Shown: in pieces, positions 902 through 24,035 of the stretch
Numbering within the stretch: the first letter of the stretch is position 1
Layout: the number at the start of each line of letters is the position of its first letter
Source: a virus
DNA: 64,000 nt
IMG/VR virus record: IMGVR_UViG_3300028048_000141
Location: 1,476-65,475 of that record
Strand: one strand, 5' to 3'
The notes under the pieces: generated by a model
Seen by the model: only the letters and a program-made list of their open reading frames with translations
What the model was told of the DNA's origin: nothing
The model's database searches: none
Translations under genes and position numbers: made by a program

Positions 902-912
902 TTAATTTAGCG
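902..912 (-). promoter_or_regulatory. motif B (minus strand CGCTAAATTAA)
   Basis: Recurrent 11-mer. Here it lies 28 nt past the stop of the 939-1184 gene, next to the hairpin CCGTGA/TCACGG, and about 40 nt upstream of the 831-858 terminator. Confidence 0.4.
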
Positions 913-938
913 TCCGTGATTTGAGTCACGGTTTTGAA

Positions 939-1184
939 TCACAGCGAGGTGACGTTCACCATCAGCCAGATTCTCACGTCCTGGAGCACCTCGGTTATCC
1001 TGTCCAACTCACGTTCCGGGAGGTCCCATCGGAAGTCTATGGTGGCGAGTTCTTCGATAAGTTCCTTGGCCTTCTTGTCGTGTTTGAGCCTCTTGAGCAG
1101 GTAGGTCCCAATCCTAACGCAGTCCATCACCTTACGATGGTAATATGCCTCCTCGTAATCGGAAAAGTCGTATCTCGCTTCCAT
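939..1184 (-). CDS. hypothetical protein
   Basis: 81-aa ORF with a GGAGG RBS. Motif B variant 23 nt upstream. Confidence 0.5.
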   Translation of the reverse strand: MEARYDFSDYEEAYYHRKVMDCVRIGTYLLKRLKHDKKAKELIEELATIDFRWDLPERELDRITEVLQDVRIWLMVNVTSL

Positions 1185-1217
1185 ACGGACGTAGCCTCCA
1201 CTGACCTTTCCTCACAT

Positions 1218-1227
1218 GAATTTAGCG
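1218..1227 (-). promoter_or_regulatory. motif B variant (CGCTAAATTC)
   Basis: Lies about 35 nt upstream of the ATG at 1184, followed by a GGAGG RBS. Confidence 0.35.
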
Positions 1228-1244
1228 ATTGGTTTGGATGTGCT

Positions 1245-1484
1245 TCAGGCCTCCGGGCATGCCGGCTCGTCGTTGGCTGCGACATAGGCAGCCGTAACGG
1301 GGTCGCACATGGACATGAGGATGAGATGCCTCAGGAAAGCCCTTTTGCTGATGCCTAGTTCATCTCTGAGTGCCTTGATGTCGTCATCCATGAAATCCTC
1401 AAGGAGTTTGACGTTCTCGCTTGTTGCGCCCTCGCGTTGGGCTTTACGGATGAATTGGCTGAATCTTCTGTCTTTATCTGTCAT
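1245..1484 (-). CDS. hypothetical small protein
   Basis: 79-aa ORF in a compact minus-strand array. Confidence 0.5.
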   Translation of the reverse strand: MTDKDRRFSQFIRKAQREGATSENVKLLEDFMDDDIKALRDELGISKRAFLRHLILMSMCDPVTAAYVAANDEPACPEA

Positions 1485-1501
1485 TTCCTTACCGGAACGG
1501 T

Positions 1502-1756
1502 TTACTGTTCCGCCTCCACTGTTGTTTTGTTCGATGTGAATCCCCTCTCGTCCAACGCCCAGGAGATTCCGTAGTCGTCGACCTTGAGCATCCCCTCTCT
1601 GCCTCTGACGATGAGATTATATCCACCGTCGAAGAAGACCAGGTAGACGAAGTCGCTTCCCCTGAAGTCGTTGATGCCGCCGTCGTATCTCTTGACGACG
1701 ATTCCGTTTTTGACGCCTTCGATGGCTTTCTTGATGTTGCTCGATACCTGTGCCAT
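1502..1756 (-). CDS. hypothetical protein
   Basis: 84-aa ORF. Confidence 0.5.
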   Translation of the reverse strand: MAQVSSNIKKAIEGVKNGIVVKRYDGGINDFRGSDFVYLVFFDGGYNLIVRGREGMLKVDDYGISWALDERGFTSNKTTVEAEQ

Positions 1757-1757
1757 G

Positions 1758-2132
1758 TCACTCCACCATCTTTCCGCCGGAGAGTTTTTCCCAGGACATA
1801 TTGTATTCCTTGGACAGGATGTATGAGAGGTTGGGCTCCCAGTAATAGACGACGTCCTTGCTTACCGCCAATTGGAGTTCGAGTCCCACGTAGGGGGCGA
1901 TGGCCGCGGTTCCGCCTGATGCCATCGTCGCTCCGCCCTCCGGTCCGTATTCGGCCCATCCGCTGATGTGGTAATATGTGTCGCCGGTGAGTTGCGAGCG
2001 TACCAACGCGTAGTTGTATTGCCTTGAGCCGGTAATCATCTGATTGCCGCCGACCTTCTTGTAGTTCTCGTTGCATCCGGCCATGCATGACACGCATGCC
2101 AACGCCAACATCGCCAATGTAAGTTTCCTCAT
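1758..2132 (-). CDS. putative lipoprotein
   Basis: Start reassigned to the ATG at 2132. N-terminus MRKLTLAMLALACVSCMAGC is a signal peptide with a lipobox. AAGGAG RBS 8 nt upstream. Confidence 0.55.
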   Translation of the reverse strand: MRKLTLAMLALACVSCMAGCNENYKKVGGNQMITGSRQYNYALVRSQLTGDTYYHISGWAEYGPEGGATMASGGTAAIAPYVGLELQLAVSKDVVYYWEPNLSYILSKEYNMSWEKLSGGKMVE

Positions 2133-2443
2133 TGTTTGTTCTCCTTGTTCCAATTGAAGACCGCGAGATACCAATTGATACCCCTACGTATTTTGTTTTT
2201 GGTGCAGATGTTTTCGGGGTCGAACCCATCGTATTCAACGATTCCCTTTTCCATCAGGCTCTTGAATATGCGTTTGGCCTTCCTAAGGTTTCCGCAGCGA
2301 CCCAAGACCTTCATCCCATCGAAGTCATAATTTTCATACGACTCGATGTGTTTCATCAAATCACGTTCCTCTTGGGTGATTTTGACGGCTGGGTTTGGGA
2401 TGTTCGTTTTCATCGTTATTGGTCCTCTTCCTTTCTGGTCCAT
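2129..2443 (-). CDS. hypothetical protein
   Basis: 104-aa ORF whose stop overlaps the downstream start. Confidence 0.5.
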   Translation of the reverse strand: MDQKGRGPITMKTNIPNPAVKITQEERDLMKHIESYENYDFDGMKVLGRCGNLRKAKRIFKSLMEKGIVEYDGFDPENICTKNKIRRGINWYLAVFNWNKENKQ

Positions 2444-2793
2444 ATCCCGAAGTCGTTCCTATACCAACCCGGGTTCTCCTTGTGGAATCTCTCCCAGAGG
2501 TATTTCTCGTGTTCCTCGTCGACGGCGTATTCGTAATGGCCGTTGGGGAAACGTATCTCCTTGACGACGAGTTGGTCTTCGTTCACAGGCTCGAACGTGG
2601 TTCCCCATTCGCCGTCCTTGTCTACCACGGTCCAGAAGACCTCCAGGAACATTCCCTTCATCTCCATCTTGACCTGGCAGTATGAGTCATCGTTGTCCCT
2701 TCCCCAGTCGAGCAGGGTCTCCACGAGCCTCATGGCGTATTCGCGTTCGCTGTCCTTAGACCAATCGAACCCCATGCTGTTGACCTTACCCAT
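2416..2793 (-). CDS. hypothetical protein
   Basis: 125-aa ORF. Confidence 0.5.
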   Translation of the reverse strand: MGKVNSMGFDWSKDSEREYAMRLVETLLDWGRDNDDSYCQVKMEMKGMFLEVFWTVVDKDGEWGTTFEPVNEDQLVVKEIRFPNGHYEYAVDEEHEKYLWERFHKENPGWYRNDFGIWTRKEEDQ

Positions 2794-4114
2794 TCGGTTT
2801 GTCCTCGCTTTCGAACAGGAACGAATTGGGCAATTGACCGGCGTCCTCGTATAGTCCGATGAGTTTCTTTATGAAGTCCTCCTTCGAGTCCTCAAGGTAG
2901 AATCTGACGACCCCCTTGGTCCCGACCCATGATTTGTAGTCGTCGTTGCTCCAGGCGTACATCTCCCTGTCCGCGATTGATTTGGGGACCACAATCAGGA
3001 TTGGGGTTACCATGTTCTTGAAGTCCTCCTTGGACCAACGGCTGTTGTATTCTCCGTCGCAGGGCATGTAGGCTTTGCATCCGAACGGGATGTTGAAGTC
3101 CACGGTCCTCTCCACGAATTCGTCGTATACCTCGCCGGCGTTGTGCTCATAGGGCTTGTCGTTCCAGTCGTCTCCCCAATAATCCGTGCAGTCCTTCTTC
3201 CCGAAGAACGCCTTGAACCCGGATGACGTCCTATCCATGTCAATCAACTTGAGGTCCTCTTTCTTGAGGGGAGCCTTTTGAGCCACGAACCTGAGTCTGA
3301 TTGAGGTCATGGATTCCTGATGGTCGGTAGGGAACACATCCGAGATATCCACGGTACCCTCATCCGCGTTGACCACTTTAGGCTGCTGCATGATGAAGTC
3401 GGGGTCGACGTCGTTCCTAAGGACAATCTCGACCGGGAAGTTGGAATCGATTGGTGCACCGACGTTTATCGTTGTGGTGCCTTTGTCGAAGTCGATGTCC
3501 TTGACCACGATTCTGCCGATTGGGTTGAGGTAGTTGATTACGACGTCCCTGAAGAACTCGAGGTATTTCCTGCGCCTCCAATCCGAGTGGGGGTCCATGC
3601 CGACGGACCTGGAGGTTTCGTCCGAGTCGTCGTACATGGACGTGCCGGAGATGGTGACGCTCACGTGTCTCTTCCCGTCTTCGTCGGTCGATGCCATATA
3701 CGAGCCTACGCCATGTGCGAGGTAGGGCATGATGTCAAGGACGTCGTTGAATCTGTATTCCTCCGAGACGTAGAACGTGTCGCTTCCGTTGTCCTTTACC
3801 AACTCCTCGATGGTGTCGAACTTGGCGTAGTCTCCAAACTTCCTCTGGAACACCGGGTGCTCGTCGAACCTGTATCCGCATTTGCACCTCCCGTCATTTA
3901 ACTTCCTGATTTCCTTGATGTAGTCGTACATACTTGAATGATTTGCCACATACTCGGCGTTGGCCTTGTTTATCTTTACCGGATGGACGATGTTGATGAC
4001 GCCCCCGGTGGCCTCCTTGAATTTCAGAAAGCATTCGTAGAAGTTATCGCCCTCATCCCCCGATAGTAGGATGTGGCTAATCAAATCCGATGCGTCGCCT
4101 GTGAGTCTGCTCAT
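2786..4114 (-). CDS. large hypothetical protein; start moved to the ATG at 4114
   Basis: The ORF as listed starts inside its own promoter. The ATG at 4114 (MSRLTGDASD...) has an AAAGGAGA RBS and lies downstream of a TTGACA/TATAAT promoter. No recognisable domain. Confidence 0.6.
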   Translation of the reverse strand: MSRLTGDASDLISHILLSGDEGDNFYECFLKFKEATGGVINIVHPVKINKANAEYVANHSSMYDYIKEIRKLNDGRCKCGYRFDEHPVFQRKFGDYAKFDTIEELVKDNGSDTFYVSEEYRFNDVLDIMPYLAHGVGSYMASTDEDGKRHVSVTISGTSMYDDSDETSRSVGMDPHSDWRRRKYLEFFRDVVINYLNPIGRIVVKDIDFDKGTTTINVGAPIDSNFPVEIVLRNDVDPDFIMQQPKVVNADEGTVDISDVFPTDHQESMTSIRLRFVAQKAPLKKEDLKLIDMDRTSSGFKAFFGKKDCTDYWGDDWNDKPYEHNAGEVYDEFVERTVDFNIPFGCKAYMPCDGEYNSRWSKEDFKNMVTPILIVVPKSIADREMYAWSNDDYKSWVGTKGVVRFYLEDSKEDFIKKLIGLYEDAGQLPNSFLFESEDKPNG

Positions 4115-4141
4115 AACGAATCTCCTTTCTCGTTCGTAACT

Positions 4142-4171
4142 ATTATACACCGTTTTCGGTCGGTATGTCAA
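4142..4171 (-). promoter_or_regulatory. sigma70 promoter (TTGACA, 18-nt spacer, TATAAT), motif A
   Basis: Minus strand reads ggTTGACAtaccgaccgaaaacggtgTATAATag. Confidence 0.6.
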
Positions 4172-4235
4172 CCTTTTGTTATCTGTATGTGTGATTGAAG
4201 GGTGCTTTCTTTTATATATTTTCTTTGGGGATGCT

Positions 4236-4297: not shown

Positions 4298-4302
4298 CAA
4301 CC

Positions 4303-6863: not shown

Positions 6864-9662
6864 TTAGTCTTCCGTGTCGTATTCGTTTAGGAATCTCTCG
6901 TATGCCTCGGTACACAGCGTGTCTATACTGTAGAAGTCGTGGATGAGGTCATACGAATCCTCGAAGTTCATGTCGTAACTGTAGATGTCTATTCCCTTCG
7001 CGTTGTTGGAGATTACGAATCCGATGTAGAGGGTGTTGTCCTCTCCCCACAACAGCGGTGAGTCCGGCTTGTCGTCATCCCAATCGCTTGAGGTGTTCAG
7101 ATACAACGCGTTGTCGTTGAAGATTCCGTACTTCTCCTCAAGGTCATGGCTTGATTCCACACTGTCTTTCGTGTTCCTGTCGTAAAGGTCGGCGTCACCG
7201 CCGGCGTATACGTAAATCTCCCTGCCGTCTTTCTTCAGGCTGAAGATTCCATCTACGCCGCAATACCAGATTGGGTCTCCCCTCTTGGGGTAGACCGGTT
7301 GATGGAACTCAATCGTGAAGCCGTGCCTTTCCGCGTCGGCCTTCATCTTTGCCATGTATTGCTGCGAGCCCGTTTCGTAATCGGTGTCCAAGTTATCCGC
7401 CTCGAAGGTTATGTCCGAGATGTCGCTGTCGTCGATGTCCTCGGTAATGTGCTCCCCGAATTTGAACGTGATGTTATCAGGCTCCTTGTTATATAGGAAG
7501 TTGTATACTATTTTGTTTGACCATCCATCGGGCCTTGATTCGGCGTCGCAGTAGATGACGCACTCAGGCGACTCAATCATGGAGAACGCGAAATCCCCGA
7601 TTGTAGTGACAGATGCCGGGATGTGTACCCTCTTCAGGCTTCTTCCGTAGGTGAACGCCTGCTTTGCGATTTCGGTCGTTCCCTCGGGGATGTCCAACGT
7701 TTCCATGCCGCTGCATCCGAAGAATGCGTCTTTGCCTATTTTCCTTAGGTTATTGGGCAATTGGACCCTCTTCATGTTGCTGCATCCGGAGAAGCATTCA
7801 TCCTGGATTTCCGTGATGCCGTCGGGAATCTTCACTTCCTCAAGTCCACTGAATTTGAACGCGCCGTTTTCGATTGACTTTATCGATTCGGGGAGGATGA
7901 CGTTCCTCAGCATCTTGCATTCGCTGAATGCGAGGCTGCCAATCTTGGTAACGGATTCAGGTATCTCCACTTCCTCCAGTCCCCAGAACCTGGAGCATGC
8001 GTATGCCGGAATCTCAGTCATACCATCCGGGAAGATTACCTTCTTGACGACTGCCCTACTGTCACCTAGGTAATCGTCGCCGCCGTATGTCCACACACCT
8101 CCTGTTCTGTCCAGGAAGTCCTGTTGGCTCAACGCGACATCGAAATCGTGTCTTGATGTGGAGAACGTGTTCTTGAACCACTTCGCTATCTTCTTAGATT
8201 TGCCGACGATGTAGCGTGCGAAGTCCTGGGACGATATCCTTGCGCAGTTTTCGCCGAAGTAATCCCTGTTCCTTGCGATGAACGTCCCTATCGCGTTGTC
8301 GTCGCCGTCCAATACGACGTATGTGTTTCTTATGGCTCCGTTTCCGTTGAAGTTATATTTTACTATGTCGCTGATTCTTTCGGCATTCTGTCCGTCATAA
8401 TACGAAAGGAATTCGTCGTAACTCAAAGGAACGACAACCTTCAATCCCGTCGCGCCGTCTTTCACCTTGGTGGGATTGTCCCTGGCGACGAACTCGATGT
8501 CCCCGATGTCTTCCTCCCCGTTTTCGTCTTCGTGCAGGCTTTGGGGCCTCGATACTCCCCAGATGATTTCTATTCCGTTGAGGAACACGGGTTCCCATGT
8601 CCTGGTGTCGTAATTATACGTCGATGTCTTTCTCTCAATCCAATCCTCTGCCCAACCGTCTGGTTTCTCCGGTGCCTCGCAGTAGACCTTTATTCTGACG
8701 CTGTCCGGGTTTGGTGCGGCCTCGGACCTATACCAGTTTCTGTACAGGTTGAATGCCTGTCTGCCAATCTTCGTGACCGAAAGTGGGATGAATATCTCGC
8801 TTAGTTTTCCGCAGTATGTGAAGCAGCGTTCCTGGATTTCCTGCAACCCATCGGGAAGGATTACCTTCTCAAGGTCATAGCAGTATGAGAACGTCCCTTC
8901 CTTGAGGACCTTGACTTTTGGGGGAATCCTGATTTCCCTTATCCCTGACGAGCAGAATGCATAGGAGCCGATTTTCTCGACGCTGTCAGGCAATTCGATG
9001 CTGGTGACGTTGGGGAACCACCCGAAGGCCCTGGACCTGATTTGCTTCGTCCCCGGTACGACTTCTATTCTCCTTGCCGCCTGTTTGTCCTTATGCGCAG
9101 GCTCCATGTCCGTGGGATAGACGTATGTCCCGGTTTGGGCGACCTTCTGTCCTCCCGCCTTCTTCTTCAATGCCGTCGATGTGTATTTGAATCCCTGGTC
9201 CACGGCCCACTTGGTCAATTTGGGGTCGTTCTGTTTGAAAATCCAGGTCGCCGCGCTGTATCTCGCGAACCTGGGCGAATAGACCCCGGCCCAGTTGGAG
9301 CAGAAAAGGAATTTGTTGTTTTCGTTTTGCTTGTCGATGAACACGAAGGCACTTGGCCAGTTCTTAGTCGTCCACGATTCCTCGTCGACCTGGTCGTATT
9401 CCATCTCGCGGTGATTGTATTTGTAGGGGCTGAGCCATTTAGTGCCGGATGCAAGAAGAATCATGCCGTCGAGGTTCTTCGGCTTGTATACGTCCCATTT
9501 GCTTCCGGAGCAGACCTTGTCCGCGCCGGCGGTGATGTCGACACCCTGGAAATCCAAATCACCGAGGTCGTCCTCGTTGAATTCCGGTTCCTGTTCGACG
9601 GCTGTCTCAGCGTCTATGTCGTCTTCTTTCAATAGTTTCAATGATTCCTTCAAATATCTCAT
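6864..9662 (-). CDS. BspA-type leucine-rich-repeat (LRR_5) protein, 932 aa
   Basis: Two blocks of about 23-aa repeats such as IPDGLQEIQERCFTYCGKLSEIFIPLSVTKIGRQAF. Typical of surface or host-interaction proteins. Confidence 0.7.
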   Translation of the reverse strand: MRYLKESLKLLKEDDIDAETAVEQEPEFNEDDLGDLDFQGVDITAGADKVCSGSKWDVYKPKNLDGMILLASGTKWLSPYKYNHREMEYDQVDEESWTTKNWPSAFVFIDKQNENNKFLFCSNWAGVYSPRFARYSAATWIFKQNDPKLTKWAVDQGFKYTSTALKKKAGGQKVAQTGTYVYPTDMEPAHKDKQAARRIEVVPGTKQIRSRAFGWFPNVTSIELPDSVEKIGSYAFCSSGIREIRIPPKVKVLKEGTFSYCYDLEKVILPDGLQEIQERCFTYCGKLSEIFIPLSVTKIGRQAFNLYRNWYRSEAAPNPDSVRIKVYCEAPEKPDGWAEDWIERKTSTYNYDTRTWEPVFLNGIEIIWGVSRPQSLHEDENGEEDIGDIEFVARDNPTKVKDGATGLKVVVPLSYDEFLSYYDGQNAERISDIVKYNFNGNGAIRNTYVVLDGDDNAIGTFIARNRDYFGENCARISSQDFARYIVGKSKKIAKWFKNTFSTSRHDFDVALSQQDFLDRTGGVWTYGGDDYLGDSRAVVKKVIFPDGMTEIPAYACSRFWGLEEVEIPESVTKIGSLAFSECKMLRNVILPESIKSIENGAFKFSGLEEVKIPDGITEIQDECFSGCSNMKRVQLPNNLRKIGKDAFFGCSGMETLDIPEGTTEIAKQAFTYGRSLKRVHIPASVTTIGDFAFSMIESPECVIYCDAESRPDGWSNKIVYNFLYNKEPDNITFKFGEHITEDIDDSDISDITFEADNLDTDYETGSQQYMAKMKADAERHGFTIEFHQPVYPKRGDPIWYCGVDGIFSLKKDGREIYVYAGGDADLYDRNTKDSVESSHDLEEKYGIFNDNALYLNTSSDWDDDKPDSPLLWGEDNTLYIGFVISNNAKGIDIYSYDMNFEDSYDLIHDFYSIDTLCTEAYERFLNEYDTED

Positions 9663-9694: not shown

Positions 9695-9705
9695 TTAATT
9701 TAGCG
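9695..9705 (-). promoter_or_regulatory. motif B (CGCTAAATTAAAT)
   Basis: 31 nt upstream of the ATG at 9662. Confidence 0.45.
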
Positions 9706-9817
9706 TCTACCTATACTAGTTACGTCCCCCATCCCTTCTCTTCTATCTCTACCCTCTCCCCATGTCCTCCTCTTCCTCGACCCCTCATATTTATATAATT
9801 GTGTAGTGTACATAGGG

Positions 9818-9857
9818 ATTTTTAAATAAATAAAGAAAGGCCCGCATTGTGCGAGCC
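9818..9857 (-). terminator. rho-independent terminator
   Basis: GGCUCGCACAAUGCGGGCC hairpin followed by a U-rich tract on the minus strand. Confidence 0.5.
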
Positions 9858-9906
9858 GTTGAGAGGGTTACCAACTGAAAGGATAAGGGATGGCAGTGCC
9901 TCTCCC

Positions 9907-9917
9907 TTAATTTAGCG
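9907..9917 (-). promoter_or_regulatory. motif B (CGCTAAATTAAG)
   Basis: 10 nt past the stop of the 9930-10313 gene. Its TAGCG forms one arm of the hairpin TAGCGA-n8-TCGCTA. Confidence 0.4.
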
Positions 9918-9929
9918 AGGAAGTTTTCG

Positions 9930-10313
9930 CTATTCCGCGGCTTTCTCGCTGACCTCCGCATCTATCGGCTCTTCCCTGGCGTATCTGAGCCTTTGTCCGC
10001 AGGCCGGGCAGTATGTGGCTACGTTAAGGAACTTATGCTCCGCCTCCGTGCACATTCTGCACACGTCCGAATAGGACACCATGGGGTTTGAGATGTCAAC
10101 GATTACCCTTCCGCATTTGGGACAATGCACGAGATGGTGTACGACAGGATACGCGACCCCGTTCACCATTATCATCGCCTGCGAGTTCTTGTCGGTCACT
10201 TCCGCAATCGTGGCCAAGGCGGGGATGTCCTTCGTGTAGTCGTGGCCGCCCTCCAGTACTTCCACTTCCGGGGAGGCCGATGTTTCAACAATGTCTTTTT
10301 CTTCCATACACAT
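9930..10313 (-). CDS. zinc-ribbon protein, possibly translated from a leaderless mRNA
   Basis: Has CPKCG and CPACG pairs. The -10 TATAAT lies only 2-8 nt upstream of ATG codons at 10313 and 10307 with no RBS. Confidence 0.5.
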   Translation of the reverse strand: MCMEEKDIVETSASPEVEVLEGGHDYTKDIPALATIAEVTDKNSQAMIMVNGVAYPVVHHLVHCPKCGRVIVDISNPMVSYSDVCRMCTEAEHKFLNVATYCPACGQRLRYAREEPIDAEVSEKAAE

Positions 10314-10357: not shown

Positions 10358-11554
10358 TCAGACATCCCAATAATCCTCGAACGGCGTGAATTCGTTAGTC
10401 TCCAGGCTTCTGTACAAATCAATCATGTCGTCGTTCCTGAGGAACACGGTGTATTTCTCGACGTTGTCGTTATCGTACAGTTCCTCTTGCGAAGGATAGA
10501 CCTTGACGATGTTCTTGGCGTCGGTCTTGATTGCCTTCGCCAGTTCGTTTATCAATTCCGAATCCGGTTCCGCGACGTCAGGCAATCCCTCGACCTTGGG
10601 TGCTTCCGGGATGACCCTCGTGTAGTTGTCGGAATCGGTGTAGATTTCGAATCTACCGTTCGATTTGCAATAGAGCATCGCGTATTTGTCTCCGAACGAG
10701 TTGATGAAGAAATAGAACTCGGATGGTGCGCCCAGGTGTTTGTTCCTGTAGAAGTTCCAGAAGTATTCCTTCTCCTTGCCGGTGATGCACCACCTCGTCC
10801 CCTTGCCGTAGATTGTGGCGGCGTCCAGGGTGTTTATCTTATATACCTTCCAGTTCTTGGAATGGTATATGAGTTCCGCCCCTTCCTTCGCGTCGGCCCT
10901 TATCTCCGACCTGGTTTTCTTGGCGGTCAACGACGTGAGGAATTCGATGAACTCCTCGGGTGTTGAGTTCCTCATCCACCAGTAGACGTCCCTCTTCTGT
11001 GCCTCGACCCTTTGCTTTTCCTTGTTGAATGTCCTTAGCACCTCATCGGTTTCGTCCATGTCGCCGACGAATGAGTTGACCCACTTGGCGAATCTTTCCC
11101 TGTCTTCCTTTGCCTCGTGCAGTATCCCCATGTCGCTTACGTCTGTCCAGGCGAATAGGTAAACGGTTTTTCCGTGTGCGTTTAACTTCGACGTGAAGTC
11201 GTATGGCTCTTCGCAATCTGGTTCCGCATCCTTGCTTAGATAGAAACTGTATCCGAAGTTGTCGTGGATGTAGTCTGCCTTTTCGTAAGTGTAACCGTAA
11301 CCATATTCGTCTTCCGGAAGTTCGTCTTGGTCATACAAATCTGTTTTGTCAATGGCGTCCTTAATCATGTCGATGTGTATCCTGTCGCCGGCGTCTGCCA
11401 CGAGATACCATCCGTGCTCATAATCGTAGAAAACCCTCAGGTCCGATTTCTGGATGTTGTTGTCTACGAACGCAAGAAAATCGGTATCACCAACTATTAT
11501 CTTGGTCGGGGTATCGTCAATCGGGTATACGTTCTCTAGTAATCTGCTTTCCAT
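10358..11554 (-). CDS. hypothetical protein carrying a conserved WC(I)TG domain; paralogous region shared with the 11606-13861 gene
   Basis: Start set at the ATG at 11554 (MESRLLEN). Region WKVYKINTLDAATIYGKGTRWCITG...FFINSFGDKYAMLY...RFEIY aligns with a segment of the next gene. Confidence 0.55.
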   Translation of the reverse strand: MESRLLENVYPIDDTPTKIIVGDTDFLAFVDNNIQKSDLRVFYDYEHGWYLVADAGDRIHIDMIKDAIDKTDLYDQDELPEDEYGYGYTYEKADYIHDNFGYSFYLSKDAEPDCEEPYDFTSKLNAHGKTVYLFAWTDVSDMGILHEAKEDRERFAKWVNSFVGDMDETDEVLRTFNKEKQRVEAQKRDVYWWMRNSTPEEFIEFLTSLTAKKTRSEIRADAKEGAELIYHSKNWKVYKINTLDAATIYGKGTRWCITGKEKEYFWNFYRNKHLGAPSEFYFFINSFGDKYAMLYCKSNGRFEIYTDSDNYTRVIPEAPKVEGLPDVAEPDSELINELAKAIKTDAKNIVKVYPSQEELYDNDNVEKYTVFLRNDDMIDLYRSLETNEFTPFEDYWDV

Positions 11555-11559
11555 ATCAA

Positions 11560-11570
11560 TTAATTTAGCA
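11560..11570 (-). promoter_or_regulatory. motif B variant (TGCTAAATTAAT) 5 nt upstream of the ATG
   Basis: Reads TGCTAAATTAATtgatATG. There is no room for an RBS, so the transcript would be leaderless if this is a promoter. Confidence 0.4.
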
Positions 11571-11605: not shown

Positions 11606-13861
11606 TTATTCGCCGATTATGACTTGGACCGCGGAGTCGACGCTCTTTTTCAAACGCCTTATCCTGTCCCTGAATGAGAGTACCGACGAACCAGATGACC
11701 ATCTTTCACCGAAGAAGATGTCGTCCAGTTTATCCTTCCTCTGTTTCTTGTCCTTGAGGGCCAATGCATTCTCTATCGATTCTACGAGGTTAGTGTATTC
11801 CTCCATGAGTTGCATCAACTGCTCTGATAGGTTCCTAAGCGTCCTAATCTTGATTGGCGACGAGTTAATCTTCTTGACGTTGAACTTGGTCAGATAGGAT
11901 GCCAGTTCCTTTCTGATTCCGTTCAATTCGTCGAGGATGTAGTCCATCGATTTGACTTTGAATTTGCCGAGTTGGATTCTCATCCTCTCGTATTTATGGG
12001 GGTCAAGAAGGTATCCGGATTTATCGTAGCCCTCGGCGTTGGCGAATCTTTGGATTCTCTTGACCGCGGTCTCGACCCACTTATCGTTCTCGTCGTAGTG
12101 GCCAGGAACCTCGACCGGTTCGTCGTGGAGCCTCCATCCCTTCTCCGGATGTCTGCCGTATTTGTCGTCCCATGTGTGGAACTCCGCTCTGCCCCTTCTC
12201 TTTTCCTTCGACCAGTTTGATTCATCCGTCGAATCGTAATAGCAGAAGTCGACCGTGTTGGCGAGGATGTCCCTCTTTGAATATTTATCAAAGGTTTCTT
12301 TGCTCCAATATGAAGGCCAGTAGTAGTATTCGTGGTCGTTCAATCCCGGAATGTAGATTTGGTCCATCTCGGTCGTCTCATCGCCATATCTATATGAGTA
12401 TTTAAGGTGATAGATGGGGACGTATGGTTCCCTGGTGAACTTCGACGCCGGGCTGGGGATATCGTCCAGGGAATAGAAGTGCATCTTGTTCAAGTCGAGG
12501 TTTGCCCTATTGAACAGTTCCTTGGCATCCTTGTTCTTTTTTAGGAAGTCCCTTAGCCATTGCGGCATCGATTCGGAGAATTCCTCATTGAGTTCCAATG
12601 CCTCCTCAACGTCCTCCCCGGACGTGAAGTTTATATGCTTTGCATAGAAAGGTTGGTTTATCCTTTTGCATGCTATCGGATGTCTCTTCGTCGTGATTTT
12701 CACCTTTTCGCATTTGTCGAACGCGTTCAATTCCAAGGTGTCGACCGATTCCGGGAGGTTGACGGTCTCAAGGTTCTTGCACCCCTCGAACGCCGATTCC
12801 CCGATATTCTTCATGGTATTCCCCTCGATTACCACGGTCTTTAGGTTCGGCATGTCCGAGAACATCCCTTGGGCTACTGCGACGAATCCGTTGCCAATCG
12901 TCAATTTCCTTAACTTCGGCCAATTCTGCCACCTTCCCCTGAATTGGGTGATGTCCACGACATCGCCGGAGCGTTCGGTCGTGATTACCACTTCCTTCAC
13001 CAACTTCCTGAATCCGTTGTTGCCCATAATCTTCCTTGCCTCGTAGGACAAATCGCCGAAGTTGTATTCGAGTTTTGCGTCGCCGTTCTCGAATTCGATG
13101 TATTCCCTTACCCTATTCATGCTTTCGAAGTTCGCGAATTCAGGTTTGTCCTTCAATAGATTGAACAACGACCTTCTGCTCAGGAAGAAATCGACGGGTT
13201 CGACTCCGGAGTTGCCGCTGTCCTTGAATTCCCTGAAGTCGTTGAATCTTCTTTCGGGGGCGTATATGGCGAATTGGTATTTTTTGTCCCTGTCGTGTTT
13301 GTTGATTATGATGAAAATCTTTCCGCCGCGTTCGGTATAGTAGTTGTAATAGTGGTCGCTGTCGTGTCTTCCGGTGCACCAGACGGCGTTGTCGCCCCTG
13401 ATGAACTTTGACGCCTCGTATGTCTGTGGGTTCCAGACCTCCCAGTCATCGTTCTTGGCGAACATGACCGCGCCTGGGATTTGCTCCGCCCTGACCTCGA
13501 AATCGGATTTGTCGTAGACGTCGACGGTGTCGAGGAAGGAAGTGAGGTCGGAGAACTTCTTGAAGGCGTTGACGTCCCTGTATTTGGCGTTGTCGCCCTT
13601 GAGTTTGTTCTTGATTGATTTGTATTTCTCCAGTGCGGGTTTTACGGCGTCCCCGATTTCGTCGAAGTCCTCTCCCCTTTTGTGCAGGGTCAAAAGCCAC
13701 TTGCCGAACTCTCCGAGTTTGTTGTTCTCGACCTTGAACGTGGGGTCAAGTGCGATAATCCTGTCGAAATCATCCCTGCCCATCTGCTGGGAATAATACG
13801 TTCCGTATACGGAATCGAGGTCTTCGTCCAATATCAATAGTCTTTTTTCTTCAAACGCCAT
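11606..13861 (-). CDS. large protein with BspA-type LRR repeats plus a WCTG paralog domain
   Basis: LRR_5 repeats such as MPNLKTVVIEGNTMKNIGESAFEGCKNLETVNLPESV. Segment WEVWNPQTYEASKFIRGDNAVWCTG...KIFIIINKHDRDKKYQFAIY is paralogous to the 10358-11554 gene. AAGGAAG RBS. Confidence 0.65.
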   Translation of the reverse strand: MAFEEKRLLILDEDLDSVYGTYYSQQMGRDDFDRIIALDPTFKVENNKLGEFGKWLLTLHKRGEDFDEIGDAVKPALEKYKSIKNKLKGDNAKYRDVNAFKKFSDLTSFLDTVDVYDKSDFEVRAEQIPGAVMFAKNDDWEVWNPQTYEASKFIRGDNAVWCTGRHDSDHYYNYYTERGGKIFIIINKHDRDKKYQFAIYAPERRFNDFREFKDSGNSGVEPVDFFLSRRSLFNLLKDKPEFANFESMNRVREYIEFENGDAKLEYNFGDLSYEARKIMGNNGFRKLVKEVVITTERSGDVVDITQFRGRWQNWPKLRKLTIGNGFVAVAQGMFSDMPNLKTVVIEGNTMKNIGESAFEGCKNLETVNLPESVDTLELNAFDKCEKVKITTKRHPIACKRINQPFYAKHINFTSGEDVEEALELNEEFSESMPQWLRDFLKKNKDAKELFNRANLDLNKMHFYSLDDIPSPASKFTREPYVPIYHLKYSYRYGDETTEMDQIYIPGLNDHEYYYWPSYWSKETFDKYSKRDILANTVDFCYYDSTDESNWSKEKRRGRAEFHTWDDKYGRHPEKGWRLHDEPVEVPGHYDENDKWVETAVKRIQRFANAEGYDKSGYLLDPHKYERMRIQLGKFKVKSMDYILDELNGIRKELASYLTKFNVKKINSSPIKIRTLRNLSEQLMQLMEEYTNLVESIENALALKDKKQRKDKLDDIFFGERWSSGSSVLSFRDRIRRLKKSVDSAVQVIIGE

Positions 13862-13885: not shown

Positions 13886-13896
13886 TTAATTTAGCA
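13886..13896 (-). promoter_or_regulatory. motif B variant (TGCTAAATTAAC)
   Basis: Sits directly downstream of the 13897-13920 terminator and 22 nt upstream of the ATG at 13861. Confidence 0.45.
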
Positions 13897-13920: not shown

Positions 13921-14556
13921 ATCCGTCTGTATATGTTTTGAGTGTTCTTTGCGAAATGATTTAAGACCGGCCTTCGCCGTACAATACTTCCCAACCGTAC
14001 CTTGTTATCCGACATTCACTGGCTCTGAGGGCAAGGGAGCGACCCAAGCACTTTTCCAATGGCCACTTGCGTGACGATACAACGCCGGGGAGCGGAACCC
14101 CGGAACTTTCACCGAACTTCAGAGACATAAAATCCTTAAGTCATCGTTTTAAAAAGACGTGATACGGCTACTCGCTCGACTTCGATTCCTTATAGCACAT
14201 TACTGTGCGTCAACACGTCCGATACCCGTAGGGTGAGTTGCCGGGCATTATGTTTCTCAGGCATAATACCGCAGGCGGGATGGGATTACTCCCAGTGCCT
14301 CTTGTGGGGCGGAATCCGAAGTCAGGACTAGATACCATTGACATACTGCGACACTGACCAGAGCCTTGCCCTCACGGGTAGGTGAACCGTCCGTAGGCAT
14401 CGCTGCCTTTCCTTCAAGGTCTCGCTTTCCGGAACAGTATCCCATTCCGTAATCGCTACGTCGGCCAGACCCCTGCGGTCCGTAAGACCATCTTCACAGG
14501 GTTGTCAATAAATCCTTTCTCAAAGAACACTCGTGAACCACGCTCTCGCATCGTTC
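13921..14556 (-). ncRNA. candidate structured ncRNA of about 630 nt; ORF-free, bounded by a promoter and a terminator
   Basis: No ORF of 60 aa or longer in any frame. Motif-A -10 at 14565-14570. The terminator at 13897-13920 closes it. GC-rich with many local hairpins. Confidence 0.3.
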
Positions 14557-14645: not shown

Positions 14646-14656
14646 TTAATTTAGCG
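14646..14656 (-). promoter_or_regulatory. motif B
   Basis: 36 nt downstream of the tRNA-Gln 3' end and about 80 nt upstream of the motif-A -10. Confidence 0.4.
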
Positions 14657-16025: not shown

Positions 16026-16036
16026 TTAATTTAGCG
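16026..16036 (-). promoter_or_regulatory. motif B. Its AGCGA forms a hairpin with a downstream TCGCT
   Basis: + strand TTAATTTAGCGAgtcgttttCGCT. Confidence 0.4.
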
Positions 16037-16093
16037 AGTCGTTTTCGCTTCAATGATTTTGTTAACAAACTTTTCGATTATGTCGTTTGTCAA

Positions 16094-18555: not shown

Positions 18556-18566
18556 TTAATTTAGCG
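18556..18566 (-). promoter_or_regulatory. motif B, 22 nt upstream of the tRNA-Thr 5' end
   Basis: CGCTAAATTAAAagtgccggcaagttgctcagat, then the tRNA begins. Confidence 0.4.
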
Positions 18567-18621: not shown

Positions 18622-19350
18622 TTATTTGGACTTTCTTTTGATTGCCCTGTCAATCGCCACCCTGTGGATGGAAGGCACGTCCTTCAACTTGCCTCCCTCG
18701 ATGATTGATTTCAGGTTTACCGGGGTGTAGTCGATGAACTCGGCGCACATGTTCATCCTATTTGGGTTTCCGCCCTCCCAGTTCGAGTGGTCGTGTCCGT
18801 GGATGTTGAACATGTACGGTGGAAGGTTCTCTATCGGTTCGTGTGACAAGATTATTTTGTCGTTAATCATGAGGGGACCTTCGTAGACTTCGTCGAACAG
18901 TTTGTTGTCGACCGTCTCCACGGTCGTGTATTTGCTTAGGACGTAGGTGTTAGCCTTCCTGAAGGCCTGCTTGTCCCCGTTGATGGCGGCCATCGTGTAC
19001 ATGTTCAAGAGCGTCGCGTCCTCGGCGGTCATGTTCTCATTCGAGAATTTCTCGACGGTGTTGACTTCCCTCCTGTAGTTGGTGACACCCTTGTCGTGGT
19101 TGCCCATGATAAGGACTTTGTAACCTTTTATTTTCCTGATGTAGTTGACGTCCCCGATGTCGCCAAGGAAGATGATGGTGTCGTTTTTGCCGACCTTTTT
19201 GTTTATCCTTCTGACTTGCTCGTCGTCTCCGATGTAGTCTTTGCGGAGGTGTTTCATCTCATCGTCACCGAAATGCGGGTCGCTGTAAATCCAGATGCTT
19301 CCGCCACGATACCATTTATCCGCGAATATCTCGTATAGGTGTTTTTTCAT
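18622..19350 (-). CDS. calcineurin-like metallophosphoesterase
   Basis: Motifs SDPHFG, GDIGD, GNHD and GHDH. Confidence 0.7.
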   Translation of the reverse strand: MKKHLYEIFADKWYRGGSIWIYSDPHFGDDEMKHLRKDYIGDDEQVRRINKKVGKNDTIIFLGDIGDVNYIRKIKGYKVLIMGNHDKGVTNYRREVNTVEKFSNENMTAEDATLLNMYTMAAINGDKQAFRKANTYVLSKYTTVETVDNKLFDEVYEGPLMINDKIILSHEPIENLPPYMFNIHGHDHSNWEGGNPNRMNMCAEFIDYTPVNLKSIIEGGKLKDVPSIHRVAIDRAIKRKSK

Positions 19351-19352
19351 GG

Positions 19353-21178: not shown

Positions 21179-21510
21179 AATAACTCAAACTCCCACTTTC
21201 CCTTACCATCTTTTAGTTTTGCAACATACTTTAGACCCCACTTTGTCCATATCGCCCCGTAGATTTCGTGACCATACATTAATCGATATGGTTTTTCGTT
21301 GGAGATAATGTGGCTATCTTCTCTCTCGTAATAATCCACGAAGTAATCACACAATTCCTCAATAGTGTCGGCTTCGCTTCTTATCTTGAACATTCCCCAC
21401 GAATTAAAGTCAATGTAGCCGTCCCCCAGCATATATGGGAGGGTGTTCTGCGTGTCTATTATGAATCCTTCTTCCGTCCTAACGTATCTCATTTCCCTTC
21501 CTCCAGGCAA
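21175..21510 (-). CDS. hypothetical protein; tandem paralog of the 20786-21178 gene
   Basis: Contains VRTEEGFIIDT, ADTIEELCDYFV and GAIWTKWGLKYVAK. Confidence 0.5.
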   Translation of the reverse strand: MPGGREMRYVRTEEGFIIDTQNTLPYMLGDGYIDFNSWGMFKIRSEADTIEELCDYFVDYYEREDSHIISNEKPYRLMYGHEIYGAIWTKWGLKYVAKLKDGKGKWEFELL

Positions 21511-21914
21511 AGGCGAATCGCAATCGAGTGAGACAAACCGATGTCATCGTAACAATAGTACGAATCATAGCCGTTGTCGAAGTAAGCCAAGGGACAGATG
21601 GCAGGGTGAATGTTGTCTTCGTCACCTAGGAAATAATCCACGATTTGGTCGGTTCTACCTTCCCTATAGGCGAGTTGGTCTTTGAACGGTAATGTTCTGA
21701 CTTCTCCCCATAAAGGAAGTCTTGCCTTGTATTTTTCGCGGATTTCCTGTGGTGCGTTATAATCAAACCATTGGGCTATTTTTGCTTTCAATGCGCGTAA
21801 TTTGTCAAGTGAGCCGTGCAACTGGGTTCCCTCCCATATCACGCTTTCCGCCAATAAGATGTTGCCGAATCTCTTGAATTCTATTTCTTTTCCGTCTTTG
21901 AATTTGATAACCAT
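21489..21914 (-). CDS. hypothetical protein
   Basis: 141-aa ORF. Confidence 0.5.
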   Translation of the reverse strand: MVIKFKDGKEIEFKRFGNILLAESVIWEGTQLHGSLDKLRALKAKIAQWFDYNAPQEIREKYKARLPLWGEVRTLPFKDQLAYREGRTDQIVDYFLGDEDNIHPAICPLAYFDNGYDSYYCYDDIGLSHSIAIRLCLEEGK

Positions 21915-21953
21915 CGTTTTACTCCTTTCAGTTTAGACTCATACATTATAACA

Positions 21954-22232
21954 TCAATCGGAAAAAGAGTCAACTGTCTCGTCTGCTTTGATTTTGGGGT
22001 TTAGTTCAAGTACCCGCTCGATTGTTAGCCCTGACATTTCCGCCAGGAACTCGGGGCTGCAGTACGTGAAGTCTACCTCCGGGTCTATCTGGGATATGAA
22101 GTCCTCCCAGGAATCGAATTCGCCGATATACCAATCTGAATCGCCGCATTCATCGCAATAGAGTTCGTCGTAATCCTTTTCGTAATCCGTCGTGTAGATT
22201 ACGCCGCTCAGATGGCTTTCATAGAAATACAT
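21954..22232 (-). CDS. hypothetical acidic protein
   Basis: 92-aa ORF. Confidence 0.45.
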   Translation of the reverse strand: MYFYESHLSGVIYTTDYEKDYDELYCDECGDSDWYIGEFDSWEDFISQIDPEVDFTYCSPEFLAEMSGLTIERVLELNPKIKADETVDSFSD

Positions 22233-22252
22233 ACCTATTCACCGTCCTTTGA

Positions 22253-22795
22253 CTAGGAGATGAGTGACGCGAGTATGTGCTTGCAGTCCTCGATGATGTT
22301 GTCTATGCCGTCGGTAACGTCGTAGACTTTGATTTCGCCGCCCCTGAGCGTGAACCTTGCGGTCTTGTGGTCGACGTCGGCGTAGTTGAGGTATGCGCCA
22401 AACCAATCTTTATTGTCATCTGCGAATGCATGGATGAAATCGAGGTCTCGGTCAATCACGCTTTCGATTTCCCTTTCCGGGAATAGGTTGTAGGTTCCGC
22501 ACCCGTATACTTTGCCTTTGTAATAGAAATAGAAGCACTGCCCGGTATCGTCGTCGAAGATATCGACCGATATCCCCCTGTATTTGTGCGTCTTGCAGTA
22601 ACAGTGTTTCTTTTCGTATTCCGTTGGCTCGGTCTCGCCTAACGCTGGGATGTATTCTACGAACTTCTTTTCGAACTCTTCCTTGAACTTGGGAATGTCC
22701 TGACCCTTGTCGAGGTACTCTTTGATTAAATAGGATACATATGAGACGGTGTTCAGTTTGCCGTTCTCGTATCCCTGCCCGAATTTATTACCCAT
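22253..22795 (-). CDS. hypothetical protein
   Basis: 180-aa ORF with an AAAGGAG RBS. Confidence 0.5.
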   Translation of the reverse strand: MGNKFGQGYENGKLNTVSYVSYLIKEYLDKGQDIPKFKEEFEKKFVEYIPALGETEPTEYEKKHCYCKTHKYRGISVDIFDDDTGQCFYFYYKGKVYGCGTYNLFPEREIESVIDRDLDFIHAFADDNKDWFGAYLNYADVDHKTARFTLRGGEIKVYDVTDGIDNIIEDCKHILASLIS

Positions 22796-22887
22796 CCTTT
22801 TGCTCCTTTCGATTTAGATGGTGTTACTCAAAAGAGTGTTGATTATCACATTGATTCAACGGTTTCTTTCCTTTGAGTTGTAGATGA

Positions 22888-22963
22888 TGGTGGACCCTAC
22901 CGGGCTCGAACCGGTGACCTCCTGCTTGCAAAGCAGGCGTTCTCCCAACTGAACTAAGGGCCC
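22888..22963 (-). tRNA. tRNA-Ala (anticodon UGC)
   Basis: Acceptor GGGCCCU/AGGGUCC with a G3-U70 wobble. Stem CCUGC/GCAGG, loop UUUGCAA. Confidence 0.8.
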
Positions 22964-22980
22964 AATTATAGACGTTTTCC

Positions 22981-23000
22981 ACGTCCAGTATTATTATACA
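22981..23000 (-). promoter_or_regulatory. motif-B variant fused directly to a motif-A -10 (CGCTAAATTCggtgTATAAT)
   Basis: This is the only site where B sits 4 nt upstream of the TATAAT. It drives tRNA-Ala. Confidence 0.45.
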
Positions 23001-23021
23001 CCGAATTTAGCGTAAGTGCAA

Positions 23022-23045
23022 ATAAAAAATCCGGAATTGACCGGA
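23022..23045 (-). terminator. rho-independent terminator
   Basis: AUCCGG-UCAAUU-CCGGAU followed by UUUUUU. Confidence 0.6.
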
Positions 23046-23112
23046 TTTCGATTTTCGAAGTTCTTACTTGTTTTGGACTAGGTAAGTAAGCGAATGCCTA
23101 GTGCTGAACTTA

Positions 23113-23334
23113 TTAGTATGCCCTTTGAATGTAGAACCTGACATTACCATCGGCGATATAAGTCTTGTCGTGGTTGTCGTCCCATACCTCATTGATTCTC
23201 AAACCGTATTTGTCGCAGATGCTGTACATGTATTGGTTTGCCGCCTGCCTTGAGGAGAAAATCTTGGAACCAAGTTTCATCCCGGTGCATGCGAATGAGT
23301 AGGCGTGTTCAGCGTTAGATGTAAATCCAAACAT
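23113..23334 (-). CDS. hypothetical small protein
   Basis: 73-aa ORF with a GGAGG RBS. Confidence 0.5.
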   Translation of the reverse strand: MFGFTSNAEHAYSFACTGMKLGSKIFSSRQAANQYMYSICDKYGLRINEVWDDNHDKTYIADGNVRFYIQRAY

Positions 23335-23660
23335 TGCTATACCTCCACATTAGTTTAACGTCGTCCCGGACGAACGGAGGAGCAATGTCGTTGCTGACAA
23401 TTTAAGCCGGTATTTAAGGCACCGGCGGGCCCTGAAAGGAGGAAACGCAGTTTTTCGGTTTTTAGCCGTGGTCATTAGGCTTGGCATCATACACCATCGC
23501 TGATGTGCCATCTGCTAACCATCCGCCCGGACTGTCGTTATCTGGCCAACGGAAGTCCGCACCGTAGGCCCCATGATACACCCTTTGGTTCAAAGCCCCC
23601 AAACCCCGTCAAGGTAAGTGTATTGAAGGGGGTATAGTTTAGTGTCGTTTCGGACAACCC
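23335..23660 (-). ncRNA. about 325-nt ORF-free, G-run-rich leader or candidate ncRNA downstream of a motif-A promoter
   Basis: -10 at 23665-23670. No ORF over 20 aa. Runs of GGGG/CCCC suggest structure. May be a long 5' UTR for the 23113-23334 gene. Confidence 0.25.
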
Positions 23661-23693
23661 ATATATTATACAGGAATTTTTCGGAAAGTGCAA

Positions 23694-23999
23694 TTATTTT
23701 TTGCTTTCTTTTTCCTTCGAGGCCTTCAGTGCGTTCTGCTTGACGTTCCTGAAGAACTCCTCGCGTTTCTCTTTGGTATCGAGTCTTCTGAAGTCGCCCC
23801 AGAGTTCGTCAGAGACGTTTCTGACGCCTCTGGCCGTGCAGGAAGCCTCAAACGATTCCCTGTCGTTGTGCTTGGACAACATCCCGCACTTCGCCATTTC
23901 CATTCTCATGGTCTTGGAGTATTCGTGGAACATCTTCCTTTTGGGGCCGTGTTTCTTGTGAGGTCCGGCTGACCCCGTCTTCGCTTTTCCTTTTGCCAT
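23694..23999 (-). CDS. small basic protein, possibly DNA or RNA binding
   Basis: 101 aa, K/R-rich at both ends. AAAGGAG RBS. Confidence 0.5.
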   Translation of the reverse strand: MAKGKAKTGSAGPHKKHGPKRKMFHEYSKTMRMEMAKCGMLSKHNDRESFEASCTARGVRNVSDELWGDFRRLDTKEKREEFFRNVKQNALKASKEKESKK

Positions 24000-24024
24000 G
24001 GTTTCGTCAGGCTCCTTTCAATAT

Positions 24025-24035
24025 TTAATTTAGCG
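24025..24035 (-). promoter_or_regulatory. motif B, 28 nt upstream of the ATG at 23999
   Basis: CGCTAAATTAAATATTGAAAGGAGCCTGACGAAACCATG. Confidence 0.45.

Follow-up and report, generated by a model that had tools for sequence, protein, structure and literature searches.

The subject of this analysis is a short repeated sequence, motif B, in a 64,000-nucleotide (nt) stretch of viral DNA (positions 1,476 to 65,475 of IMG/VR record IMGVR_UViG_3300028048_000141; hereafter the window). The window corresponds to ENA contig ERZ27252073:k141_269272 (105,285 bp) in reverse complement, and every gene lies on the minus strand of the window. Its source is most likely a gut or rumen phage that has not been cultured. 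When words on the gene strand were ranked by enrichment, two stood far ahead of the rest: TGTATAAT(AT), referred to as motif A, and GCTAAATTAA, referred to as motif B. A DNA search of the window against cultured phages returned tRNA matches only, and a literature search with the motif string returned only unrelated primer sequences.

A preliminary description of the window had proposed a conserved 11-mer at 11 or more intergenic sites as a second class of promoter, and the counts bear out the repeated motif. The exact 11-mer, CGCTAAATTAA, occurs seven times (902, 9695, 9907, 14646, 16026, 18556 and 24025), always on the minus strand, where dinucleotide shuffles predict no copies. Allowing one mismatch gives 11 sites, adding 1217, 11560, 13886 and 30572, again on the minus strand only and against an expectation of 0.75 from the same kind of shuffle. 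The 8-mer core, GCTAAATT, has 12 copies in the window, all on the minus (gene) strand between 904 and 30581, against about 0.2–1 expected by chance, and ranks among the two most over-represented words of that strand (p about 5e-18). On a crude map of open reading frames (ORFs) and RNA genes, about 10% of the window is non-coding; once two spurious ORF calls are corrected, 11 of the 12 copies are intergenic. The sole copy within an ORF, at 30572, lies close to the 3' end of that frame. The coordinates first given were right to within one nucleotide (1218 and 30573 become 1217 and 30572), except that there is no copy at 22991; the real site is a variant, CGCTAAATTCG, at 23002–23012. Beyond the window, where a further search had been proposed, a 13th copy lies about 460 nt past window position 1, ahead of a gene for a 695-amino-acid (aa) protein. 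There are no copies in the 7.7 kb upstream of the window, nor in window 30583–64000, which holds the replication genes.

The motif takes the form (C/T)GCTAAATTAA followed by nTG, the T-G two to three bases past the 11-mer being conserved. In the window phage, the base before the G is C in nine of 13 copies and T in two; T, which gives TGn, is found in 24 of 50 copies overall and in 22 of the 37 from relatives. The hexamer TAAATT agrees with the -10 consensus of sigma-A promoters at four of six positions, retaining T-12, A-11 and T-7, and its non-consensus bases are constant: the invariant positions of motif B are G-14 together with the non-consensus C-13, A-10, T-8 and A-6. As described before, there is no -35 consensus upstream of the motif, either in the 13 sites of the window phage or in 37 sites from relatives. 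Information content between -30 and -10 is mostly below 0.6 bit in the 13 sites (maximum 0.69 bit, at -9), and an A/T-rich stretch at -9 to -3 reaches 0.5–0.9 bit in the 37. Hairpins had also been reported at 9913–9932 and 16030–16049. These are present, but are merely 4-bp stems (AGCG/CGCT) that arise from AGCGAAAAC lying 4–5 nt upstream of the motif at 9907 and 16026 only, and local hairpins were rejected as a shared feature of motif B.

The copies and their immediate surroundings are as follows (SD, Shine–Dalgarno sequence; LRR, leucine-rich repeat).

902–912, minus strand: CGCTAAATTAA, then a 69-nt unit (901–833) with a 5' hairpin and a terminator (858–841), 43 nt downstream
826–798, minus strand: sigma-A type promoter after the 902 unit, with a gene start next at 773
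1217–1227, minus strand: variant CGCTAAATTCA, 32 nt ahead of the SD and ATG (1184) of an 81-aa gene; this variant recurs in the relative L028
9695–9705, minus strand: motif B copy 32 nt ahead of ATG 9662 of a 932-aa BspA-type LRR protein
9907–9917, minus strand: motif B copy heading the candidate small RNA at 9830–9906
9830–9906, minus strand: candidate small RNA with a 5' hairpin, a 17-nt C/U-rich loop and a terminator (9857–9839), 49 nt downstream of the motif
11560–11570, minus strand: TGCTAAATTAA, right after terminator 11599–11578 and 5 nt ahead of the SD-less ATG (11554) of a 398-aa gene
13886–13896, minus strand: TGCTAAATTAA, right after terminator 13920–13905 and 24 nt ahead of ATG 13861 of a 751-aa LRR protein
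14646–14656, minus strand: motif B copy following tRNA-Gln, with a sigma-A type promoter (14594–14565) and ROOL RNA (14525–13950) downstream
16026–16036, minus strand: motif B copy after tRNA-Ser, 26 nt ahead of the SD and ATG (15999) of a 34-aa ORF, which is followed by a terminator-like hairpin and T-run (by eye)
18556–18566, minus strand: motif B copy 20 nt downstream of TATAAT (18592–18587) and 23 nt ahead of tRNA-Thr (18532); motifs A and B in tandem
23002–23012, minus strand: variant CGCTAAATTCG, with two mismatches, in the spacer of a sigma-A type promoter (23022–22993) and 38 nt ahead of tRNA-Ala (22963)
24025–24035, minus strand: motif B copy 25 nt ahead of the SD and ATG (23999) of a 101-aa gene, with the stop codon of the preceding gene 2 nt upstream
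30572–30582, minus strand: variant GGCTAAATTAA in the 3' end of ORF 30492–30878, with TATAAT 4 nt further on, 79 nt ahead of ATG 30492

Five kinds of context can be distinguished: between a terminator and a gene, between genes, before RNA genes, heading short units closed by a terminator, and together with a sigma-A type promoter (18556, 23002 and 30572). Placement directly after terminators, as first described, holds at 13886 and 11560, where terminators 13920–13905 and 11599–11578 lie immediately upstream. The between-gene copies at 1217, 9695, 24025 and 16026 stand 25–32 nt from a ribosome-binding site and ATG. The tiny transcripts suggested at 902 and 9907 also have a structural counterpart, as both units fold into a 5' hairpin and a terminator, with fold z-scores of -3.1 and -3.5 (-3.4 and -5.7 in L028).

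Several neighbouring features deserve mention in their own right. The ROOL RNA, a full-length match to Rfam RF03087 (160.9 bits) at 13950–14525 on the minus strand, is found in the tRNA region of the phage, is ended by terminator 13920–13905 and has motif B on both sides. Each of the two BspA-type LRR proteins (6864–9662 and 11606–13861, minus strand) occupies its own cassette, running from a motif B copy to a terminator. The C/U-rich loop of the candidate small RNA at 9830–9906, AUCCCUUAUCCUUUCAG, is anti-Shine–Dalgarno-like.

Motif A represents the other promoter class. It has the form TTGCAy-N17-GTGTATAATAT, is of sigma-A type, and occurs at about 20 minus-strand sites, from 4147 to 57644, spread over the whole window. 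The replication module is served by promoters of this type only. Within motif A, GTG directly abuts TATAAT (TGTATAAT), placing TG at -14/-13 instead of the usual -15/-14, and an A-rich spacer (GAAAAyC) precedes the GTG-TATAAT. Read from the sequence, strong AGGAGG ribosome-binding sites together with TTGCAy/TATAAT promoters suggest hosts of the Firmicutes type.

Conservation in related uncultured phages

The relative L028 is close enough to be aligned with the window; its homologue of the 398-aa protein is 84% identical. All five homologous motif B sites are kept in L028, including the CGCTAAATTCA variant. In these alignments, conserved blocks start exactly at the 5' edge of the motif, and the sequence upstream has been replaced or deleted. 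At the 902 site, for example, the upstream gene in L028 is a different one, and at 9695 the window has an insertion of 119 nt that reaches up to the motif, whereas in L028 the motif copy abuts the T-run of the terminator. The inserted segment itself (9706–9824, minus strand), which is missing from L028, is purine-rich (GAGGGGTCGAGGAAGAGGAGGACATGGGGAGAGGG...) and lies between the terminator and the next motif B copy. We take these block boundaries to be a by-product of cassettes made of promoter, gene and terminator, and not a function of the motif; they recall the promoter-stem-loop cassettes of T4-type phages.

The short units are conserved as well. From the motif at 9907 to the end of the terminator T-run, 80 of 82 nt (97%) are identical in L028, a level above that of the flanking coding DNA. 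The stem of the 902 unit is kept through G-U pairs (GGAC/GUUU versus GGAC/GUCC), which argues for transcription in this orientation.

The gene starting at 11554 had been predicted to be leaderless, and the relatives favour this. Its 396-aa homologue in L028 is called from the same ATG, also without a Shine–Dalgarno sequence, and ATGs of this kind open long ORFs 14–16 positions from the G of the motif in three phages (window 11554, L081 2223 and L117 6210). A further leaderless candidate, in L082, was rejected as it opens only a 31-aa ORF.

A broader sample of relatives was assembled from loci around homologues of two window proteins, the metallophosphatase (18622–19350) and a sigma-like ORF described below, and comprised 1.53 Mb with a GC content of 25–57%. 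The metallophosphatase has 3087 homologues, many of them on contigs of 100–270 kb; tblastn against cultured phages gave no match for either protein. In this sample, the marker-gene strand carries 39 copies of the word GCTAAATTAW and the other strand seven. Of the 39 gene-strand copies, 37 are not deep in a long ORF, meaning that on one side or both the open frame extends for fewer than 50 codons. The consensus of these sites is ttTGCTAAATTAWwTGA. Fifty sites were examined for downstream starts: 34 have an SD-preceded start within 400 nt, and in 17 of these the ribosome-binding site and ATG lie at +21 to +53 nt. Two copies are followed by c-di-GMP-I riboswitch aptamers (RF01051), 26 nt downstream in L031 and only 5 nt downstream in L034:

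L031, 18294–18371: c-di-GMP-I aptamer, RF01051, 57.9 bits
L034, 5322–5397: c-di-GMP-I aptamer, RF01051, 53.8 bits

As an aptamer is part of its transcript, these positions would put the start within a few bases after the motif.

Scanning IMG/VR for TTGCTAAATTAWWTGA revealed contigs with same-strand arrays of three to five copies. Genes directly downstream of copies in relatives encode portal, head–tail adaptor and tail sheath proteins, as well as head maturation proteases (two PHROG matches, with a third ORF alike by sequence) and a weakly matched terminase large subunit (E 3e-5). Four of the contigs with virion genes are tied to the window phage. Three share with it topoisomerase IA (46% identity), DnaB (52% identity), peptide deformylase, primase, a DnaC-like loader and a 101-aa protein, the last of which is itself downstream of the window copy at 24025. 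The fourth, L147, stems from a contig on which a homologue of the metallophosphatase (L072) is also found. Homing endonuclease genes of the HNH type were also found directly downstream of motif B (L053 18413–19369 and L117 6224–7027), one of them with an SD-less ATG 4 nt on. Two other routes to relatives were less informative: those found in IMG/VR through DNA polymerase (L001–L022) were too distant, and the replication modules fetched from them held no motif B copies, while a topoisomerase scan of IMG/VR gave one irrelevant locus.

A sigma-fold protein from the replication module

The preliminary description had named a divergent sigma-like ORF at 59261–60157 as a speculative reader of the motif. 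The sigma fold was found, but the frame is best read as 59261–60118, and the tie to motif B is circumstantial.

59261–60118, minus strand: ORF of 285 aa in the replication (presumably early) module; sigma-factor fold, candidate reader of motif B

The protein contains a sigma-2 domain fold and an extra C-terminal helical domain. Listed with the fold result is structure 7d7d, which we take to be the T4 gp55 late-transcription system. The fold has no counterpart at the level of sequence. The ORF has no match in Pfam, PHROGs or PDB, singly or as a profile, and neither the ORF, nor a six-sequence profile, nor a 67-sequence profile and its members taken singly gave a significant match to Sigma70_r2, Sigma70_r4 or solved sigma factors. 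One of the 67 family members matches Sigma70_r3 (E 0.003). Comparison of the family by hhalign with SPO1 gp34, SPO1 gp28 and the A511 sigma factor gave probabilities below 1%. The family has 603 cluster representatives at 50% identity and no Pfam model.

In several phages, the sigma-like ORF lies upstream of a partner ORF (247–268 aa) and of the DnaC-like, DnaB and primase genes. The partner in the window is a 247-aa ORF (58530–59273, minus strand) without a family match, which always follows the sigma-like gene in relatives (246–268 aa). By analogy with gp33 and gp34, its product may act as a partner of the sigma-like protein.

Of the window ORFs that were scanned or had precomputed Pfam matches, none showed a Pfam domain of sigma factors or of RNA polymerase; 13 ORFs between 35951 and 57621 lie outside that set. 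A phage RNA polymerase as reader of motif B was rejected, since the window, L023 and L025 yielded no DxDGD catalytic motif and the ORFs scanned in them no polymerase domain. That the 285-aa protein is the sigma factor reading motif B is a tentative assignment, to which we would give a little less than an even chance; it draws on the logic of timing and on analogy with other phages.

Weighing the promoter reading

From its sequence, motif B is very probably a promoter of the late type with a long -10 box known from Herelleviridae. As an overall account of the observations, a class of promoters with a long -10 box, without a -35 element and read by a phage factor is probably the best explanation, a somewhat less secure claim. 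The kind of signal is already known, having been mapped in Listeria and Staphylococcus phages, and motif B is a one- or two-base variant of it.

A sequence of events can be proposed on this basis. Host RNA polymerase with sigma-A would read the TTGCAy-N17-TGTATAAT promoters throughout the window, including those of the replication module. The replication module would then yield the divergent sigma-like protein (59261–60118), and a phage factor would direct the RNA polymerase core to motif B. TAAATT would serve as the -10 hexamer, with transcription starting about 5–7 nt past the 11-mer, at positions 13–16 counted from the G. In the window phage, motif B would head tRNA blocks, the two LRR-protein cassettes, small genes and two candidate small RNAs, and in relatives it would head virion genes. 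Units with both kinds of promoter (18556, 23002 and 30572) may be kept expressed throughout infection. A different role for the motif, with a downstream -10 partner and motif B acting like a MotA box or -35 element, was rejected because inspection found no conserved hexamer 11–18 nt downstream.

A number of points weigh against this account. The copies at 902 and 9907 each have a stop codon on one side and a terminator on the other, so that a promoter fits there only if the short units are real RNAs. T precedes G in 24 of the 50 copies, and host sigma-A could read the resulting TGn as part of an extended -10 element. Late-gene placement comes from relatives, the virion genes of the window phage lying outside the window, and the sigma-like family and motif B co-occur at the level of the clade only. 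Some of the relatives were picked by the motif scan itself, which selects one copy per locus and biases the sample; the extra same-strand copies and the functions of the genes are independent of that selection. The sequences show that the motif exists, on which strand and where it lies, how it is built and conserved, how close it comes to mapped late promoters of other phages, and that the ORF has a sigma fold; for this phage we infer the firing of motif B, its start sites, its timing and its reader protein.

The most serious rival dispenses with a phage sigma factor. Host sigma-A holoenzyme would itself read motif B as an extended -10 promoter (TGnTAAATT), which would become competitive late in infection once a phage protein had disabled recognition of -35 and UP elements. 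Such a protein would resemble the anti-sigma factor of Staphylococcus phage G1, and Thermus phage P23-45 offers a parallel. Retention of T-12, A-11 and T-7, the invariant G-14, and T at -15 in 22 of 37 copies of relatives (two of 13 in the window phage) are all in keeping with it, as is the likening of the late motif of Listeria phage CKA15 to a SigA extended -10 element by authors who also noted an anti-sigma homologue (PMC12282133). Moreover, the motif is common to phages of 25–57% GC and to Herelleviridae, whose sigma-like proteins are unlike the 285-aa ORF in sequence, which a common constraint imposed by the host polymerase would explain. The window phage itself, however, has C and not T at -15 in nine of 13 copies, and C-13, A-10, T-8 and A-6 are invariant, where sigma-A sites would be expected to scatter around TATAAT, and its own motif A uses TGTATAAT. 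The clade also encodes and conserves a sigma-fold protein, and the study of a Kayvirus concluded that an alternative phage sigma factor is at work (PMC7698491). On balance, reading by sigma-A is rather unlikely.

Two further readings have far less in their favour. Motif B might be an operator, bound by a phage DNA-binding protein that blocks promoters or elongating polymerase. The stoperators of mycobacteriophage L5 are asymmetric, repressor-bound sites in one orientation, and motif B is likewise an asymmetric, multi-copy site with one orientation relative to transcription, mostly intergenic; a sigma-A type promoter overlaps, or lies shortly upstream of, the copies at 23002, 30572 and 18556. 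An operator would not account for copies just after terminators, at promoter-like distances from ribosome-binding sites with ATGs, tRNAs and aptamers, nor for SD-less gene starts 4–6 nt after the motif. In addition, the window ORFs with Pfam scans or precomputed Pfam matches yielded no integrase or repressor domain (the 13 ORFs between 35951 and 57621 lay outside all family-library scans, and 57 ORFs outside the PHROGs scan). Near-identical motifs are mapped start regions in Herelleviridae (PMC12282133, PMC7698491), and an operator function is very improbable. Slightly more improbable again is an RNA processing site, an AU-rich endonuclease target at which polycistronic transcripts would be cut near tRNAs and small RNAs freed from 3' untranslated regions. 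The position of copies 902 and 9907 between stop codon and terminator, the tRNA genes flanked by several copies and the restriction to the transcribed strand would suit such a site. At least five copies, however, lie a few nucleotides after strong intrinsic terminators, where there would be little RNA to cut; conserved blocks begin at the motif while the transcribed sequence upstream is swapped; and the match is to mapped promoters of other phages (PMC12282133, PMC7698491).

If motif B is a late promoter, it provides an annotation rule: a word of 10–11 nt would mark late units in many uncultured gut and rumen phages, and would predict transcription starts, leaderless genes and small RNAs. The sigma-fold ORF, invisible to sequence searches, could be tested in vitro without culturing a host. 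As new leads, this hidden family of sigma-fold proteins and the small RNAs predicted for the phage are the most useful. A puzzle also arises, namely that one late-promoter word is nearly common to phages with unrelated virion proteins.

Apart from these subjects, the phage carries a set of genes for translation and RNA repair. It includes 25 tRNAs, a Thg1-like tRNA-His guanylyltransferase, peptide deformylase, a CCA-adding enzyme, a type IA topoisomerase and a kinase–phosphatase–RNA ligase fusion of the Pnkp type (loci: window 25666–26541, 30878–31549, 61723–63996 and 26975–28867; L025 5995–7449). A phage transfer-messenger RNA (45828–46224, minus strand; RF00023, 94.6 bits), unreported by ARAGORN, adjoins tRNA-Ile(tat) and tRNA-Leu(taa).

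Comparison with known phage promoters

The preliminary description had likened motif B to the late promoters of T4. A likeness to late promoters stands, but the nearest match is the long -10 box of Herelleviridae and not the T4 sequence, TATAAATA, whose reader is gp55, acting together with gp33 and the sliding clamp. T4 and the window phage would have in common a -10-only promoter and a small, highly divergent sigma-like reader (a candidate here), and the window phage also encodes a sliding clamp and clamp loader. They differ in the promoter sequence and in the candidate reader, which at 285 aa has an extra C-terminal helical domain.

The late promoters of SPO1, recognised with gp33/gp34, are quoted in PMC3601020 as CGTTAGA-N17-19-GATATT. 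The proposal made here resembles SPO1 in that a phage sigma factor from the replication module would switch host RNA polymerase to late genes, and the -10 element GATATT resembles TAAATT and TATATT. The -35 element CGTTAGA of SPO1 has no equivalent with motif B, which makes SPO1 a poorer match than the Herelleviridae discussed below, and words like motif B (GCTAWAWTA) were absent from the 48.6 kb of SPO1 examined. The start-associated sequences of Cluster K mycobacteriophages occupy a fixed spot just upstream of the start codons of protein genes only. Motif B, unlike these, also precedes tRNAs, aptamers and non-coding units, and its distance to the ATG ranges from 5 to more than 50 nt.

The closest counterparts have been mapped in two cultured phages. 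In Listeria phage CKA15 (P100-like, Herelleviridae), transcription start sites were determined by ONT-cappable-seq and sorted according to when the genes downstream reached their highest expression (PMC12282133). Its late groups have the motifs TGYTATAWTA and TDTGCTATATTA, the latter being the 40-min group, the commonest sequence is TGCTATATTA, and there is no -35 element (PMC12282133). The authors described the late motif as like the extended -10 of SigA promoters and noted an anti-sigma homologue; the gene for the phage sigma factor peaks in mid-infection (PMC12282133). In the Staphylococcus Kayvirus vB_SauM-515A1, RNA-seq revealed 12 late promoters. These carry a long -10 box, TGTTATATTA, but neither a -35 nor an UP element, the initiating base lying 6 bp after the box (PMC7698491). 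Some units are under both early and late promoters, one late promoter precedes a homing endonuclease gene, and one consensus site lies just before a terminator; a phage-specific alternative sigma factor was inferred by the authors (PMC7698491). In the genome of Listeria phage A511, TGCTATATTAW stands ahead of the endolysin, portal-region (gp81), protease and major capsid genes. At 33520, 32 nt ahead of the first gene of the late operon, there is an exact TGCTAAATTAA.

Motif B resembles these promoters in several respects. It has the same 10-nt long -10 box without a -35 or UP element, and its sequence (TGCTAAATTA in relatives, CGCTAAATTA in the window phage) is one or two bases off: (T/C)GCTAAATTA is one base from the box of CKA15 and A511, and two from that of the Kayvirus. 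As in Herelleviridae, the box lies upstream of morphogenesis genes (for motif B, in relatives), and there are units with both promoters, sites just before terminators and homing endonuclease genes downstream (the last again in relatives). A start about 6 bp after the box, as in the Kayvirus, would fit the SD-less ATGs found 14–16 positions from the G.

There are also clear differences. Position 5 of the box is A in motif B and not T, the window phage favours C before the G, and an extra T-G is conserved. The clade is uncultured, and its structural proteins lack BLAST similarity to those of A511 or SPO1, just as its sigma-like protein resembles neither SPO1 gp34 nor the A511 sigma factor in sequence. 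Motif B also heads tRNA blocks and candidate small RNAs, lies upstream of the ROOL RNA and, in relatives, precedes c-di-GMP riboswitches.

A broader generalisation can be offered as a possibility, more doubtful than the assignment of the reader alone: the 285-aa family would be a very divergent, unrecognised family of sigma factors reading TGCTAAATTA, and the long -10 box would be a language common to Herelleviridae and a large clade of uncultured gut and rumen phages, despite the lack of sequence similarity between their virion and sigma proteins. If true, this would point to an ancient or convergent code for late transcription in phages that infect Firmicutes-like hosts, as judged by their Shine–Dalgarno and sigma-A signals. 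Within the clade, the same code would also control small RNAs and tRNA blocks, lie upstream of the ROOL RNA gene and head c-di-GMP riboswitches.

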